NCBI RefSeq assembly: GCF_003334305.1
Contig: NZ_QOWS01000004.1
DNA length: 64,000 bases
Direction: 5' to 3' (one strand)
From: Escherichia coli
GTDB taxonomy: Bacteria; Pseudomonadota; Gammaproteobacteria; Enterobacterales; Enterobacteriaceae
The position numbers and the translations under genes were made by a program. Positions 46,925 to 57,719 of the stretch are shown here, in pieces (the first letter of the stretch is position 1; every line of letters starts with the position of its first letter). The notes under the pieces are model-generated. The model was not told where the DNA came from, made no database searches, and saw only the letters and a list, made by a program, of their open reading frames with translations.

Positions 46925-47001
46925 TAAGAGTGTGTCGGCGGTCAATTTCCCTTAAGTAACGCTATGTTAGGGTGTTGTGTTCTGGATATCTGGGGCATGA
47001 C

Positions 47002-48273
47002 ATGGAAGACGACTGCGACATTATTATTATTGGTGCCGGTATTGCAGGCACCGCTTGCGCGTTACGCTGCGCACGAGCGGGTTTATCCGTTTTGTTACTG
47101 GAACGCGCTGAAATCCCCGGCAGCAAAAATCTTTCCGGCGGGCGGTTATATACCCATGCACTCGCGGAACTCCTCCCGCAATTTCATCTGACCGCGCCTC
47201 TTGAACGACGCATCACTCACGAAAGCCTTTCCCTGTTAACGCCCGATGGCGTAACGACGTTTTCCAGCTTACAGCCCGGCGGTGAATCCTGGAGTGTATT
47301 ACGTGCACGGTTCGATCCGTGGCTGGTTGCCGAAGCCGAAAAAGAAGGTGTCGAATGCATCCCCGGAGCGACGGTGGATGCACTGTATGAAGAAAACGGC
47401 AGGGTGTGTGGTGTCATTTGTGGTGACGATATTCTCCGCGCCCGTTATGTGGTGCTGGCAGAAGGTGCCAACAGCGTCCTGGCTGAACGTCACGGATTAG
47501 TGACTCGTCCTGCTGGCGAAGCGATGGCGTTGGGGATCAAAGAAGTGCTGTCGCTGGAAACATCCGCTATTGAAGAACGTTTTCATCTGGAGAATAACGA
47601 AGGCGCAGCGTTGCTGTTCAGCGGCAGGATCTGTGATGACTTACCCGGCGGCGCATTTCTTTATACTAATCAACAAACGCTCTCGTTAGGGATTGTTTGC
47701 CCGCTCTCTTCCCTTACGCAAAGTCGTGTTCCGGCAAGCGAGCTGCTGACTCGCTTTAAAGCGCATCCGGCAGTGCGCCCGCTTATCAAAAACACGGAAT
47801 CACTGGAGTATGGTGCGCATCTGGTGCCAGAAGGTGGCTTGCACAGTATGCCGGTGCAATACGCCGGTAACGGCTGGCTGCTGGTGGGCGATGCGTTGCG
47901 CAGTTGCGTCAATACCGGAATTTCCGTGCGCGGCATGGATATGGCGCTGACTGGCGCGCAGGCGGCGGCACAAACGCTGATAAGCGCCTGCCAGCACCGC
48001 GAGCCGCAAAATCTGTTTGCGCTTTATCATCACAACGTAGAGCGCAGCCTGCTATGGGATGTTCTACAACGTTATCAGCATGTTCCGGCGCTTTTGCAAC
48101 GCCCTGGCTGGTATCGGGCGTGGCCTGCGTTAATGCAGGATATTTCCCGCGATTTATGGGATCAGGGTGATAAACCTGTTCCACCGCTGCGCCAGTTATT
48201 CTGGCGTCATTTACGTCGTCATGGCCTGTGGCATCTGGCGGGCGATGTTATCAGGAGTCTGCGATGTCTGTAG
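47002..48273 (+). CDS. ygcN: FixC-like FAD-dependent oxidoreductase (ETF:quinone oxidoreductase family)
   Basis: Start chosen at MEDDCDIIIIGAGIAGTA (423 aa), giving the FAD-binding GxGxxG motif at the N-terminus. Confidence 0.85.
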   Translation: MEDDCDIIIIGAGIAGTACALRCARAGLSVLLLERAEIPGSKNLSGGRLYTHALAELLPQFHLTAPLERRITHESLSLLTPDGVTTFSSLQPGGESWSVLRARFDPWLVAEAEKEGVECIPGATVDALYEENGRVCGVICGDDILRARYVVLAEGANSVLAERHGLVTRPAGEAMALGIKEVLSLETSAIEERFHLENNEGAALLFSGRICDDLPGGAFLYTNQQTLSLGIVCPLSSLTQSRVPASELLTRFKAHPAVRPLIKNTESLEYGAHLVPEGGLHSMPVQYAGNGWLLVGDALRSCVNTGISVRGMDMALTGAQAAAQTLISACQHREPQNLFALYHHNVERSLLWDVLQRYQHVPALLQRPGWYRAWPALMQDISRDLWDQGDKPVPPLRQLFWRHLRRHGLWHLAGDVIRSLRCL

Positions 48274-48524
48274 CCCATAATCTCTGGCGCGTTGCTGATG
48301 CGCCGCACATTGTTCCGGCTGACTCCGTTGAGCGTCAGATGGTACAACGGTTGATTAACGCCTGTCCGGCAGGTCTTTTTTCGCTCACACCGGAAGGTGA
48401 CTTACGCGTTGATTATCACGGCTGCCTGGAGTGTGGCACCTGCCGTTTGCTGTGCGACGAATCCACACTACAACAGTGGCGCTATCCGCCTTCCGGATTC
48501 GGCATCACCTACCGCTTTGGATAA
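48264..48524 (+). CDS. ygcO: FixX-like ferredoxin
   Basis: Start chosen at MSVAHNLWRV (86 aa); C-terminal CxxCxxC motif. Confidence 0.8.
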   Translation: MSVAHNLWRVADAPHIVPADSVERQMVQRLINACPAGLFSLTPEGDLRVDYHGCLECGTCRLLCDESTLQQWRYPPSGFGITYRFG

Positions 48525-48540
48525 ATAATAAGGATAATTT

Positions 48541-54758: not shown

Positions 54759-54936
54759 GTGTGATATTCGTATTGTCAAATAGTTTTAAAAAGCAGAAGC
54801 GTGATTACTCTCACACAACACCTCTGCTTTCCATGTTATTTCTTATTGCAATTACTAGAGACCTGAGAAAAGTAATCCACCTGAAAGGGCGGCTTACTTT
54901 TCTCTTTTTTTTGTCTATTACAAATGGGAATACGAT

Positions 54937-56214
54937 ATGCAACACAACTCATATCGCCGTTGGATAACCCTCGCGATAATTAGTTTTAGCGGCGGCGTTA
55001 GTTTCGACCTGGCTTATTTACGTTATATTTATCAAATTCCCATGGCGAAATTTATGGGATTCAGCAATACCGAGATAGGTTTAATAATGAGTACCTTTGG
55101 TATTGCGGCTATTATTCTTTATGCCCCCAGCGGCGTTATTGCCGATAAATTTTCACACCGCAAAATGATTACTTCCGCGATGATCATTACCGGATTACTG
55201 GGTCTGTTAATGGCAACGTATCCACCGCTGTGGGTAATGCTCTGTATTCAGGTCGCCTTTGCGATAACGACGATTTTAATGCTGTGGTCGGTGTCGATTA
55301 AAGCCGCCTCGTTGCTGGGCGATCATAGTGAGCAAGGGAAAATTATGGGCTGGATGGAAGGGCTGCGCGGCGTCGGTGTAATGTCGCTGGCGGTGTTTAC
55401 CATGTGGGTCTTTTCTCGCTTTGCACCGGATGACAGCGCCAGCCTGAAAACAGTCATTATCATCTACAGTGTGGTTTACATCTTGTTGGGGATTCTGTGC
55501 TGGTTTTTTGTTAGCGATAACAACAACCTGCGCAGTGCCAATAACGAAGAAAAACAGTCATTCCAGCTTAGCGACATCCTTGCCGTTTTGCGTATCAGCA
55601 CCACCTGGTATTGCAGCATGGTGATTTTTGGTGTCTTCACAATCTACGCCATTCTGAGTTACTCCACCAACTATCTGACCGAAATGTACGGCATGTCGCT
55701 GGTGGCAGCGAGCTACATGGGGATTGTGATCAACAAAATCTTCCGCGCGCTGTGCGGCCCACTTGGCGGCATTATCACCACCTACAGTAAAGTGAAATCC
55801 CCTACCCGCGTGATCCAAATCCTTTCCGTACTCGGCCTGCTGGCGTTAACTGCCCTGCTCGTCACGAACTCTAACCCGCAATCGGTCGCGATGGGGATTG
55901 GCCTGATTTTACTGCTGGGATTCACCTGTTACGCCTCACGCGGGCTGTACTGGGCCTGCCCTGGCGAAGCGAGAACACCGTCTTACATTATGGGCACCAC
56001 GGTAGGTATTTGTTCGGTGATTGGATTCCTGCCGGATGTCTTCGTTTACCCGATTATCGGCCACTGGCAAGACACCCTGCCCGCAGCAGAAGCCTACCGC
56101 AATATGTGGCTGATGGGAATGGCGGCGCTTGCCATGGTGATTGTCTTTACCTTTTTGCTGTTCCAAAAAATTCGTACTGCTGATAGCGCCCCCGCAATGG
56201 CTAGCAGCAAGTAA
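54937..56214 (+). CDS. yqcE: MFS transporter
   Basis: 425 aa, hydrophobic. Confidence 0.88.
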   Translation: MQHNSYRRWITLAIISFSGGVSFDLAYLRYIYQIPMAKFMGFSNTEIGLIMSTFGIAAIILYAPSGVIADKFSHRKMITSAMIITGLLGLLMATYPPLWVMLCIQVAFAITTILMLWSVSIKAASLLGDHSEQGKIMGWMEGLRGVGVMSLAVFTMWVFSRFAPDDSASLKTVIIIYSVVYILLGILCWFFVSDNNNLRSANNEEKQSFQLSDILAVLRISTTWYCSMVIFGVFTIYAILSYSTNYLTEMYGMSLVAASYMGIVINKIFRALCGPLGGIITTYSKVKSPTRVIQILSVLGLLALTALLVTNSNPQSVAMGIGLILLLGFTCYASRGLYWACPGEARTPSYIMGTTVGICSVIGFLPDVFVYPIIGHWQDTLPAAEAYRNMWLMGMAALAMVIVFTFLLFQKIRTADSAPAMASSK

Positions 56215-56240
56215 GCCAGGAAAATTACAGGAGAAAAATC

Positions 56241-57719
56241 ATGTCGAAAAAATACATCATAGGGATTGATGGCGGAAGTCAGAGCACAAAAGTGGTGATG
56301 TACGATCTGGAAGGTAACGTGGTTTGCGAAGGCAAAGGCTTATTACAGCCGATGCACACGCCAGATGCCGATACTGCAGAACATCCTGACGACGATTTAT
56401 GGGCATCATTATGTTTTGCAGGTCACGATTTGATGAGCCAGTTTGCCGGGAATAAAGAAGATATTGTTGGCATCGGCCTGGGCTCCATCCGTTGCTGCCG
56501 TGCGTTATTGAAAGCCGACGGCACGCCAGCTGCGCCGTTGATTAGCTGGCAGGATGCACGCGTTACACGCCCTTACGAACATACGAATCCTGACGTGGCG
56601 TATGTCACCTCTTTTTCGGGTTATCTGACGCATCGCTTAACCGGCGAGTTTAAAGACAATATCGCCAACTATTTTGGTCAGTGGCCGGTGGATTATAAGA
56701 GCTGGGCATGGAGCGAAGATGCTGCGGTAATGGATAAGTTTAATATCCCCCGTCATATGCTGTTTGATGTGCAAATGCCTGGCACCGTCCTCGGACATAT
56801 CACACCACAAGCCGCACTGGCGACACATTTCCCGGCAGGACTGCCGGTTGTTTGTACCACCAGTGATAAACCGGTAGAAGCTCTGGGGGCCGGATTACTG
56901 GATGATGAAACTGCGGTAATTTCTCTTGGCACTTACATCGCATTGATGATGAACGGCAAAGCACTGCCGAAAGATCCGGTGGCGTACTGGCCGATTATGT
57001 CTTCTATTCCGCAAACATTGCTGTATGAAGGTTACGGTATTCGCAAAGGTATGTGGACGGTGAGCTGGCTGCGTGACATGTTAGGCGAGTCGTTAATTCA
57101 GGATGCCAGGGCGCAGGATCTTTCACCGGAAGATTTACTCAACAAGAAAGCCTCTAGTGTGCCACCTGGCTGTCATGGGCTGATGACGGTGCTGGACTGG
57201 CTGACCAATCCGTGGGAACCGTACAAACGCGGGATTATGATCGGCTTTGATTCCAGCATGGATTACGCATGGATATATCGTTCGATATTGGAAAGTGTGG
57301 CGCTAACGCTGAAGAACAATTACGACAATATGTGTAATGAAATGAATCACTTTGCGAAGCATGTGATCATTACTGGCGGCGGTTCGAACAGCGATCTGTT
57401 TATGCAAATTTTTGCCGACGTGTTCAACCTTCCGGCACGCCGTAACGCCATTAACGGTTGTGCAAGTCTGGGAGCAGCGATTAATACAGCGGTAGGTCTG
57501 GGGCTATACCCGGATTACGCAACGGCTGTTGATAAGATGGTTCGCGTGAAAGATATCTTTATACCGATTGAGAGCAATGCCAAACGCTACGACGCGATGA
57601 ATAAAGGCATTTTCAAAGACCTAACCAAACATACTGATGTGATCCTGAAAAAATCGTATGAAGTGATGCATGGGGAATTGGGGAATGTGGATTCGATCCA
57701 GAGCTGGTCGAATGCGTAA
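56241..57719 (+). CDS. ygcE: FGGY-family carbohydrate kinase
   Basis: 492 aa, MSKKYIIGIDGGSQSTKVV. Confidence 0.9.
   Translation: MSKKYIIGIDGGSQSTKVVMYDLEGNVVCEGKGLLQPMHTPDADTAEHPDDDLWASLCFAGHDLMSQFAGNKEDIVGIGLGSIRCCRALLKADGTPAAPLISWQDARVTRPYEHTNPDVAYVTSFSGYLTHRLTGEFKDNIANYFGQWPVDYKSWAWSEDAAVMDKFNIPRHMLFDVQMPGTVLGHITPQAALATHFPAGLPVVCTTSDKPVEALGAGLLDDETAVISLGTYIALMMNGKALPKDPVAYWPIMSSIPQTLLYEGYGIRKGMWTVSWLRDMLGESLIQDARAQDLSPEDLLNKKASSVPPGCHGLMTVLDWLTNPWEPYKRGIMIGFDSSMDYAWIYRSILESVALTLKNNYDNMCNEMNHFAKHVIITGGGSNSDLFMQIFADVFNLPARRNAINGCASLGAAINTAVGLGLYPDYATAVDKMVRVKDIFIPIESNAKRYDAMNKGIFKDLTKHTDVILKKSYEVMHGELGNVDSIQSWSNA

Follow-up and report, generated by a model that had tools for sequence, protein, structure and literature searches.

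The ygcN-ygcE locus of Escherichia coli

The subject of this analysis is the ygcN-ygcE locus of E. coli, ten contiguous open reading frames (ORFs) at positions 46972-57719 of a 64-kb stretch of contig NZ_QOWS01000004.1 (RefSeq assembly GCF_003334305.1; the whole stretch is called the window below), which form three transcription units, ygcNOP, ygcWUSRQ, and yqcE-ygcE (Table 1). The stretch and all ten proteins (YgcN, YgcO, YgcP, YgcQ, YgcR, YgcS, YgcU, YgcW, YqcE, and YgcE) are 100% identical to the RefSeq record of E. coli strain A7, and the sole difference in coordinates is the start of ygcN, where the longest ORF begins at a GTG at 46972 and RefSeq uses the ATG at 47002. Counting a genome as positive when at least 80% of the cluster is covered in one place, 5061 of 5426 complete E. 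coli genomes (~93%) carry it, including B2 and O157:H7 strains.

The ygcN-ygcE finding is real, and it is still an orphan pathway: the initial annotation gave no defined substrate for homologs of these genes, and in the full-text literature we likewise found no substrate assignment, only reports on a CRP site and incidental mentions. Overexpression of YgcS raised the yield of nicotinamide mononucleotide from nicotinamide (PMC8601175). In enterohemorrhagic E. coli (EHEC), ygcU was induced 1.69-fold by D-serine, and a ygcU deletion failed to bring back type 3 secretion activity when D-serine was present. CRP site 1 of the locus was already known; what we add is a four-gene core, an oxidase of the alkyl-dihydroxyacetone phosphate synthase (ADPS) type, transporter evidence from non-enteric bacteria, and a pair of covarying leader RNAs.

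Table 1. Genes, leader RNA elements, and CRP sites of the ygcN-ygcE locus, with positions in the window. ETF, electron-transfer flavoprotein; MFS, major facilitator superfamily; SDR, short-chain dehydrogenase/reductase; DHAP, dihydroxyacetone phosphate; FAD, flavin adenine dinucleotide.
Feature	Position	Strand	Description
ygcN	47002..48273	+	FixC-like FAD oxidoreductase, putative ETF:quinone oxidoreductase; first gene of ygcNOP
ygcO	48264..48524	+	FixX-like ferredoxin
ygcP	48541..49116	+	GlpP-family (PF04309) protein, putative RNA-binding antiterminator for both leaders
ygcQ	49264..50124	-	Divergent ETF alpha subunit
ygcR	50121..50900	-	Divergent ETF beta subunit
ygcS	50878..52287	-	MFS transporter, NiaP / aromatic-acid / organic-cation type
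ygcU	52309..53763	-	Flavoenzyme, placed in alkyl-DHAP synthase branch of VAO/PCMH family; most conserved gene of the locus
ygcW	53833..54618	-	KduD / gluconate-5-dehydrogenase-like SDR
ygcW leader element	54640..54716	-	Helix P1 54706-54701 with 54685-54680; loop AGAGAUAAUGAGAAA 54700-54686; terminator 54691-54650 plus U-run
CRP site 1 TGTGATCGTAATCACA	54743..54758		Perfect palindrome; ~41 bp upstream of presumed ygcW transcription start
CRP-like site 2 CGTGATTACTCTCACA	54800..54815		9 of 10 half-site bases, sequence match only; ~41 bp upstream of presumed yqcE start
yqcE leader element	54841..54914	+	Helix P1 54851-54856 with 54871-54876; loop AGAGACCUGAGAAA; terminator 54865-54904, U-run to 54912
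yqcE	54937..56214	+	MFS transporter, anion:cation symporter / organophosphate type
ygcE	56241..57719	+	FGGY kinase; LsrK and xylulokinase are the nearest characterized relatives

A conserved core with lineage-specific accessories

A scan for YgcU with one genome per species yielded 80 loci at 64-100% YgcU identity, a range that spans the five phyla sampled, and YgcU is 71-73% identical in organisms as different as Sporomusa, Alkalihalobacillus, Desulfobacula, and Photobacterium. Genes were counted over 83 loci by tblastn of the ten proteins and by all-against-all clustering of neighboring ORFs. YgcW adjoins YgcU in 77 of the 83 loci (63-97% identical), a kinase orthologous to YgcE is present in 72, and YgcP in 56. 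YgcU, YgcW, and YgcE lie next to one another in 72-83 loci, which come from Enterobacterales, Vibrionaceae, SAR324, Desulfobacterota, Bacillota, and Actinomycetota, and the core set also lies on megaplasmids of Enterococcus gilvus and Streptomyces clavuligerus. The conserved unit is thus YgcW, YgcU, and YgcE, usually with YgcP, and the ten-gene set is a composite. This divides the picture drawn by the initial annotation: all ten ORFs lie in place with the families it gave them, and within Enterobacterales they are syntenic and co-inherited as expected of one functional island, but across bacteria co-inheritance narrows to these three or four genes.

The genes for ETF beta and alpha, found in 59 and 54 loci, are frequent yet dispensable. 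They directly follow ygcU in every sampled locus of a strict anaerobe whose contig extends past ygcU; they are absent from Halobacillus, Virgibacillus, Thalassobacillus, Saccharopolyspora, Prauserella, Pantoea/Erwinia, and some Serratia, and from the strict aerobes in the sample, in which YgcU nevertheless keeps an identity of 65-70%. YgcQ is 27-40% identical to the ETF alpha subunits encoded beside YgcU in other phyla. The FixCX-like pair, YgcN (33 loci) and YgcO (25 loci), occurs in Enterobacterales only and is missing from strict anaerobes that retain ETF. In E. coli, the four proteins together represent all four subunit classes of FixABCX, with YgcR as beta, YgcQ as alpha, YgcN as the FixC-like, and YgcO as the FixX-like member. 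None of the ten proteins of the locus reaches an equivalog cut-off in a search of the NCBIfam models, and for the redox proteins the shortfall is large: YgcN, although FixC-like at E values of 1e-109 to 1e-114, scores 382 bits against PRK10015 and 365 bits against the FixC model PRK10157 (cut-off 610), YgcO 84 bits against FixX (cut-off 166), YgcR 32.5 bits against FixA (cut-off 219), and YgcQ 62-76 bits against ETF-alpha models, far under their cut-offs (62 against 549 for FixB). With scores so far below the equivalog cut-offs, YgcNO and YgcRQ are best regarded as paralogs only, with no orthology to FixABCX or YdiQRST.

The core and the accessories also differ in their rates of change. Between Klebsiella/Citrobacter and E. 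coli, YgcU, YgcW, and YgcP are 93-97% identical, and YgcQ is only 56-63% and YgcN 62-78% identical; in G+C content, ygcW, yqcE, and ygcP (43-49%) stand apart from the ETF and FixCX genes (55-57%). The locus in E. coli is thus a mosaic, in which a core that evolves slowly is combined with redox and transport accessories that change faster.

Transport is the most variable part. YgcS (39 loci) is confined to Enterobacterales and matches the NCBIfam models TIGR00895 (182 bits) and TIGR00898 (139 bits). YqcE is found in 44 loci, of which 40 are from Enterobacterales; a Photobacterium ortholog (58% identical) sits ahead of the kinase gene, and weak MFS relatives (26-32%) occur in loci L078, L079, L082, and L083. 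Its NCBIfam matches, to TIGR00893 and TIGR00881, are weak and include the galactonate-transporter family. About two dozen of the ~42 loci outside Enterobacterales, many of which lie on short contigs, instead have a transporter of the BCCT (betaine/choline/carnitine transporter) or Opu type: a BCCT protein in 13 loci and, from an Opu-type ATP-binding cassette (ABC) system, an OsmF-like binding protein (8 loci) and an ATPase whose C terminus is extended by a long segment (10 loci). The substrate indicated for those non-enteric lineages is an organic cation or zwitterion, and possibly a quaternary amine. In six loci (L066-L069, L071, and L084; ORF cluster 27, for example L084 6518-7846) from Syntrophomonadaceae, a metagenome-assembled genome (MAG) of Actinomycetota, and Desulfobacterales, a methyltransferase of the MttB superfamily lies near the cluster (344 bits, against a trimethylamine methyltransferase cut-off of 525), which hints at a methylated amine as substrate or product.

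A second oxidase, related to GlcD and LctD, is encoded in 13 loci of anaerobes and Photobacterium, not in E. coli, and in 7 of the 13 a second ETF pair accompanies it; in Photobacterium, the second ETF alpha carries a ferredoxin-type domain. The second oxidase follows the first ETF pair in L004 (13187-16591) and L057 (13246-16793), both with an ETF pair of its own, and also in L002, L047, L056, L059, L063, and L082. This enzyme might oxidize a released substituent or a hydroxyacid product of the pathway. The BCCT, Opu-type, MttB-family, and second-oxidase/ETF proteins all score below equivalog cut-offs.

Clustering of the neighboring ORFs reveals no conserved dehydratase, aldolase, isomerase, or epimerase. 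The product is not given away by the genes next to the cluster in Geosporobacter and Halobacillus either, among which there is no aldolase, isomerase, or glyoxalase. The conserved neighbors found in Halobacillus, Saccharopolyspora, S. clavuligerus, and Pantoea are limited to the SDR, the kinase, YgcU, YgcP, and a transporter, and a set of three enzymes may therefore suffice.

Two further observations concern the sampled loci. The Enterobacterales kinases (L029-L045, L048, and L077) fall into two subtypes, one in E. coli, Klebsiella, and Cedecea (79-100% identical to YgcE) and one in Serratia, Rahnella, and Pantoea (43-50%), the latter adjoining YgcU and YgcW that are 77-87% identical. Loci L006 ('Planctomycetota MAG') and L024 ('Chryseobacterium sp. 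18061') encode YgcU 100% and 89% identical to that of E. coli, L024 in the full enterobacterial gene order; they probably reflect contamination or mis-binning of public assemblies, not horizontal transfer.

The core enzymes and the alkyl-DHAP synthase signature of YgcU

YgcU contains FAD_binding_4 and FAD-oxidase_C domains, and its best match in the Protein Data Bank (PDB) by phmmer is alkyl-DHAP synthase (4bby, E 4e-40), which ranks above glycolate oxidase, LctD, and the D-lactate dehydrogenases; a profile of 12 YgcU orthologs matches 4bby at E 1e-55. The ADPS catalytic residues, which we identified through the deposited mutants R419H and Y578F, are retained: R419, Y578, and HHH615-617 align to R262, Y398, and H438-440 of YgcU and are invariant in the ortholog alignment (A1). 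Enzymes of the GlcD/LctD type carry a metal-binding glutamate in a GEHG loop where YgcU and ADPS have HHH, and we observe the GEHG loop only in the second, separate oxidase of the Photobacterium locus. A Foldseek search with an AlphaFold model of YgcU also places AGPS at the top (E about 1e-24, TM-score 0.63-0.68), although the model, built from a 12-sequence alignment, is of low confidence and lends only weak support. On this evidence, YgcU is best assigned to the alkyl-DHAP synthase branch and not to the 2-hydroxyacid dehydrogenases of GlcD/LctD type.

The resemblance has limits. YgcU (484 residues) matches ADPS only from about residue 158-180 onward, and the N-terminal ~155 residues of ADPS, which contribute to the hydrophobic lipid tunnel for the fatty alcohol and acyl chain, have no counterpart. 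Unlike ADPS, YgcU is part of a catabolic operon that also encodes a kinase, SDR, and transporter; its hosts are bacteria not known to make ether lipids; and it is coupled to an ETF, implying net redox turnover. The catabolic operon and the dedicated ETF argue against a redox-neutral acyl/alkyl exchange, and we therefore treat YgcU as ADPS-like, not as ADPS.

The pairing of a VAO-family FAD dehydrogenase with adjacent ETF beta and alpha genes is also found in LctBCD of Acetobacterium woodii (PDB 7qh2), although the active-site motifs of YgcU are of the ADPS and not the LctD type. A different parallel is offered by fixABCX, which accompanies caiTABCDE, and by ydiQRST: these, too, combine ETF beta, ETF alpha, a FixC-like flavoprotein, and a FixX-like ferredoxin, and the cai system shares with the wider family of ygc-type loci an association with BCCT transporters. 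In the ygc locus, however, the partner enzyme is a VAO-family flavoprotein and not an acyl-CoA dehydrogenase, and the FixCX part is an add-on restricted to Enterobacterales.

The other two core enzymes are clear members of large families. YgcW comes closer to an equivalog cut-off than any other protein of the locus (350.6 bits against 369 for KduD, PRK06935; 276 against 339 for TIGR01832) and also matches the GolD/DthD polyol dehydrogenase model. YgcW is a close KduD relative that should not be called KduD; E. coli has a separate kduD. YgcE belongs clearly to the FGGY family (PDB 5ya0, E 3e-30) and reaches no subfamily cut-off (143 bits against 380 for XylB, 141 against 528 for LsrK).

These assignments bear on the view, taken in the initial annotation, that the locus encodes sugar-acid catabolic enzymes. 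In such a pathway, YgcW, as a KduD paralog, would act on a keto-deoxy sugar acid or 5-ketogluconate, YgcE would be a kinase of the gluconate/ketoacid type, and YgcU with its ETF would be a 2-hydroxyacid dehydrogenase like LctD or GlcD. The near-threshold KduD score of YgcW, a 143-bit match of YgcU to the GlcD model, the galactonate-transporter match of YqcE, and the solved precedent of the LctD-ETF complex are all in keeping with it. However, ADPS ranks above all hydroxyacid dehydrogenases in the sequence, profile, and fold comparisons, the active-site loop of YgcU is HHH as in ADPS, no dehydratase, aldolase, or isomerase is conserved with the cluster, and non-enteric clusters carry BCCT or Opu transporters. 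The sugar-acid label is not supported as it stands, and we consider such a pathway quite improbable.

Paired leader RNAs and a probable GlpP-type regulator

The two divergent units, ygcWUSRQ and yqcE-ygcE, each begin with a leader that contains a strong intrinsic terminator ending a few bases ahead of the ribosome-binding site. By folding, the ygcW leader forms a 19-bp stem followed by a U-run (-31 kcal/mol, z -7.9) and the yqcE leader a hairpin of -20.5 kcal/mol (z -4.7). The 5' arms of both terminators have the sequence GAGAAARGUAA in common, preceded by UUACY and AGAG, and this arrangement allows a second helix, P1, in which UUACY pairs with RGUAA around a near-invariant loop, AGAG-N3-5-GAGAAA. 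The ygcNOP unit, which carries ygcP, has no such element.

The element recurs in other bacteria upstream of SDR, YgcU, MFS, or BCCT genes, with three copies in some loci, and its hosts include Photobacterium, Clostridia, Halobacillus and relatives, Syntrophomonadaceae, Saccharopolyspora/Prauserella, and Serratia. In an alignment of 49 sequences (A2), P1 is 94.9% paired with compensatory changes in 4 of 6 pairs (for example, GC 30 / AU 13 and UA 37 / CG 6); its covariation score was reached by none of 500 shuffles, and slid controls were 17-63% paired. In the terminator, the outer 11 bp reach 93.5% pairing and include 4 compensatory pairs. Alignment column 38 covaries both with its partner in P1 (column 17) and with its partner in the terminator (column 77), a hallmark of two structures that exclude each other. 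On its own, P1 is worth only -1.4 and -6.4 kcal/mol in the two leaders by folding, against the strong terminators; termination is therefore the default, and read-through needs a stabilizing factor.

That factor is probably YgcP, which we take to be a genuine antiterminator acting on both leaders, given its homology and its co-occurrence with the element. YgcP contains a PF04309 (G3P_antiterm) domain, as precomputed for a 99%-identical protein, and matches the structures 3kts (E 1e-27) and 1vkf (E 8e-15) in a sequence search of the PDB. A covariance model of the element (R1) has exactly two hits in the window, the two leaders (72.9 bits for yqcE, 72 bits for ygcW), and among loci with full flanks, the element accompanies YgcP in 52 and is never missing where YgcP is present; of the 7 loci lacking YgcP, 6 lack the element and 1 has it. 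A regular-expression search for the motif missed 8 loci, and the covariance model recovered all of those with YgcP; the model found no element in 15 loci without YgcP and matched it on both megaplasmids. An Rfam search of both leaders returned no family, only a sub-threshold naRNA4/REP match and a chance nadA match. The yqcE leader is present at 95% identity or more in 5064 E. coli genomes and has no RefSeq feature beneath it.

Antitermination by GlpP at terminators in 5' untranslated regions is established in Bacillus subtilis (PMC9604022, PMC10573289). We compared the ygc leaders with canonical GlpP glycerol loci of distant YgcP relatives, taken from the search of representatives at 33-35% identity: L088 (GlpP with GlpA/B/C-like proteins), L089 (GlpP-GlpK-GlpF), and L090 (GlpP-GlpK-GlpD). 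Scored against R1, the L088 leader reaches 26.7 bits; its sequence is CUGCU-AGAGAGAUGAGAGUAU-AGCGG, with a terminator of -34.7 kcal/mol behind it, and the spacer between GlpP and GlpK in L089 reads GGC-GGAGAUGAAGAGA-GCC, again followed by a terminator. The ygc and GlpP motifs therefore have a common architecture, in which a purine-rich AGAG..GAGAG loop is closed by a short helix whose 3' strand opens the terminator.

The ygc system resembles the B. subtilis glp system in several respects: a PF04309 regulator, an FGGY kinase as the source of the phosphorylated inducer, a flavin dehydrogenase, leader terminators overlapped by a short hairpin with an AGAG..GAGAG loop, and carbon catabolite control superimposed. 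It differs in that its host is Gram-negative, YgcP shares only about 33-38% identity with GlpP from glycerol loci, its dehydrogenase is ADPS-like and not GlpD, an SDR is an obligatory partner, and its target RNA has a consensus of its own, UUACU AGAG-N-GAGAAA AGUAA. In Clostridium butyricum (L085, pNPD4_2, 6989-13705), a GlpP-family paralog 33% identical to YgcP lies beside a HAD hydrolase, a sugar ABC transporter, and a sugar-phosphate isomerase, and the covariance model did not find the E. coli-type element there, which makes the E. coli-type consensus a feature of the YgcP subfamily alone. The GlpP family evidently regulates more than glycerol and ygc-type pathways. In the literature, we found GlpP-type antitermination described neither for E. 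coli nor for other Enterobacterales.

Alternatively, the leader could be a small-molecule riboswitch and YgcP an enzyme of the pathway, a reading suggested by the TIM-barrel-like fold that GlpP-family proteins (3kts, 1vkf) presumably share and by a conserved loop that could in principle bind a ligand. We consider this most improbable: conservation is limited to a 6-bp helix and a loop of ~15 nt, there is no Rfam match, P1 is far too weak to outcompete the terminator unaided, the element tracks YgcP across loci, and a homologous motif occurs in canonical GlpP regulons, where antitermination is known to depend on protein.

A second layer of regulation, which the initial annotation suggested from the perfect CRP site in the divergent promoter, is transcriptional. 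Site 1 is the sole perfect TGTGA-N6-TCACA in the window and was predicted earlier by PhyloScan (PMC1794230); binding of CRP there has been documented by chromatin immunoprecipitation in enterotoxigenic E. coli (PMC4287617) and by Footprint-seq in K-12, with a Kd of about 1.7 nM (PMC12871828), and yqcE-ygcE is listed as Crp-activated (PMC8085971). Site 2 has one mismatch and lies 57 bp from site 1. From plausible -10 hexamers and the positions of the leader elements, we infer one divergent promoter per site, with site 1 serving ygcW (start near 54709-54713) and site 2 serving yqcE (start near 54846-54849). Regulation of the locus would thus be two-layered, by CRP and by antitermination, the latter a point that the initial annotation had missed.

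Several other sequence features lie in or beside the locus. The cluster is flanked by cysJIH and queD on one side and by the CRISPR-2 array and queE on the other. The gap between queD and ygcN is only 77 bp, and ygcNOP may share a transcript with queD. The convergent gap between ygcP and ygcQ contains a palindromic element (49143-49216, + strand) that resembles repetitive extragenic palindromic (REP) sequences, with a sub-threshold Rfam match to naRNA4 (34 bits, gathering score 59.5). Just past ygcE is a GC-rich hairpin without a T-run (57728-57751), followed by three degenerate CRISPR-like repeats (GGTTTATCCCCGCTG...) at 57760-57900, an AT-rich leader, and the CRISPR-2 array from 58359, which the strain A7 annotation carries as a direct repeat.

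A proposed pathway and its alternatives

We propose that the locus is a CRP-activated, YgcP-antiterminated catabolic module for a small, glycerol-like diol or polyol, a proposal in which we place about even confidence. The analysis itself establishes the gene content, the conserved core, the covarying RNA element with its co-occurrence with YgcP, and the ADPS signature; we infer the ligand of YgcP, the order of the steps, the direction of electron flow, and the class of substrate, and we take the binding of CRP from published work. CRP-cAMP would activate both divergent promoters, ygcWUSRQ through site 1 and yqcE-ygcE through site 2, each transcript beginning a few bases 5' of its leader, which would terminate by default. 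YgcP, loaded with a phosphorylated intermediate of the pathway (an analog of glycerol-3-phosphate is the candidate ligand), would stabilize P1, and P1 would sequester the 5' arm of the terminator and allow read-through. YqcE and YgcS would import the substrate. YgcW would oxidize a terminal 1,2-diol (R-CHOH-CH2OH) to a 1-hydroxy-2-ketone (R-CO-CH2OH), the type of reaction catalyzed by KduD and gluconate-5-dehydrogenase. YgcE would phosphorylate the primary hydroxyl to give a 1-substituted dihydroxyacetone phosphate; LsrK and xylulokinase phosphorylate the terminal CH2OH of small ketoses or diketones. YgcU would then carry out flavin chemistry at C1, releasing triose phosphate (DHAP or an oxidized derivative) and the substituent. 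Overall, X-CH2-CHOH-CH2OH would be converted through X-CH2-CO-CH2OH and X-CH2-CO-CH2OP to triose phosphate and XH. Electrons would flow from YgcU to ETF (YgcRQ) and, in Enterobacterales, on through the FixCX-like YgcNO to the quinone pool; in aerobes without ETF, YgcU presumably uses O2 or a housekeeping acceptor. Glycerol itself is presumably not what the pathway consumes, because E. coli already has glpFK and glpD under GlpR.

The pattern of ETF retention, kept in anaerobes and lost in strict aerobes, fits a YgcU that acts as a dehydrogenase and uses ETF when O2 is absent, and the retention of ETF in anaerobes together with YgcNO in E. coli argues for net oxidation by YgcU. The same pattern could be read in the opposite direction. 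FixABCX is thought to supply electrons for carnitine reduction by CaiA, and YgcNO and YgcRQ, paralogous to FixCX and FixAB, could similarly feed electrons to YgcU, which would reduce or cleave an alpha-substituted ketone as an anaerobic electron sink; BCCT transporters, the family of CaiT, accompany the cluster elsewhere. However, YgcU is well conserved in aerobe clusters that lack any ETF, FixCX is missing from strict anaerobes that retain ETF, and CRP activation with a kinase and SDR at the front end is typical of carbon catabolism, so that a reductive respiratory role seems very improbable.

A route of the erythritol or glycerol type is unlikely. Here, the kinase would act first and YgcU would be an FAD polyol-phosphate dehydrogenase, an analog of GlpD or EryB working through ETF and YgcNO, with YgcW in an auxiliary role, oxidizing a second hydroxyl or some related substrate. 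An FGGY kinase, a flavin dehydrogenase, and a GlpP-type regulator do mirror glpK, glpD, and glpP, the coupling to ETF implies net oxidation, and YgcW matches the GolD/DthD model. On the other hand, YgcU is unrelated to GlpD and EryB, which belong to the DAO family, and keeps the ADPS residues for a ketone phosphate; a tetritol or pentitol would need an isomerase or epimerase, neither of which is conserved in the cluster; and BCCT or Opu transporters would be unexpected for neutral polyols.

Several points weigh against the module for a glycerol-like diol or polyol as we have drawn it. The classes of transporter vary by lineage (MFS of the anion:cation symporter type, NiaP-like MFS, BCCT, and Opu-type ABC), implying either a zwitterionic substrate or several precursors. 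The kinase could act ahead of the SDR. ADPS itself is redox-neutral, so a pure ADPS-type substitution does not predict a dedicated ETF, and the AlphaFold model of YgcU has a mean pLDDT of 66, with the C-terminal active-site segment below 50. The transcription start sites, and hence the -41.5 spacing of the CRP sites, are deduced, and the binding of YgcP to RNA is argued from co-occurrence and homology to GlpP.

A more specific form of the glycerol-like module would make YgcU the catabolic counterpart of alkyl-DHAP synthase, in which the flavin forms an adduct of ADPS type at C1 and cleaves a C-X bond that is not directly hydrolyzable. We think this unlikely. Candidates for X would be a quaternary or tertiary amine, an ether (for example, a betaine-lipid head-group ether), a thioether, or a sulfonate. 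Two individual substrates were considered. Glycerophosphocholine would suit all the classes of transporter, but the route would waste ATP compared with hydrolysis by GlpQ, and it is a candidate only. 2,3-Dihydroxypropane-1-sulfonate (DHPS) was suggested by the adjacent cysJIH, an adjacency that is merely enterobacterial synteny.

Significance

Ten genes without assigned function in the best-studied bacterium reduce to a core of four that is 64-97% identical across distant phyla, and so strong a conservation suggests one precise, widespread, and overlooked substrate. The chemistry indicated is unusual, with a flavoenzyme resembling an ether-lipid synthase at work in catabolism. If YgcU does cleave C-X bonds, gut, marine, and soil bacteria would share a novel, widely distributed pathway for glyceryl-linked osmolytes or lipid head groups, under a previously undescribed branch of GlpP-type RNA switches that reaches E. 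coli. The leader element adds a regulatory RNA to the E. coli map, and together with YgcP it offers a ready reporter for finding the inducer and hence what the pathway degrades.

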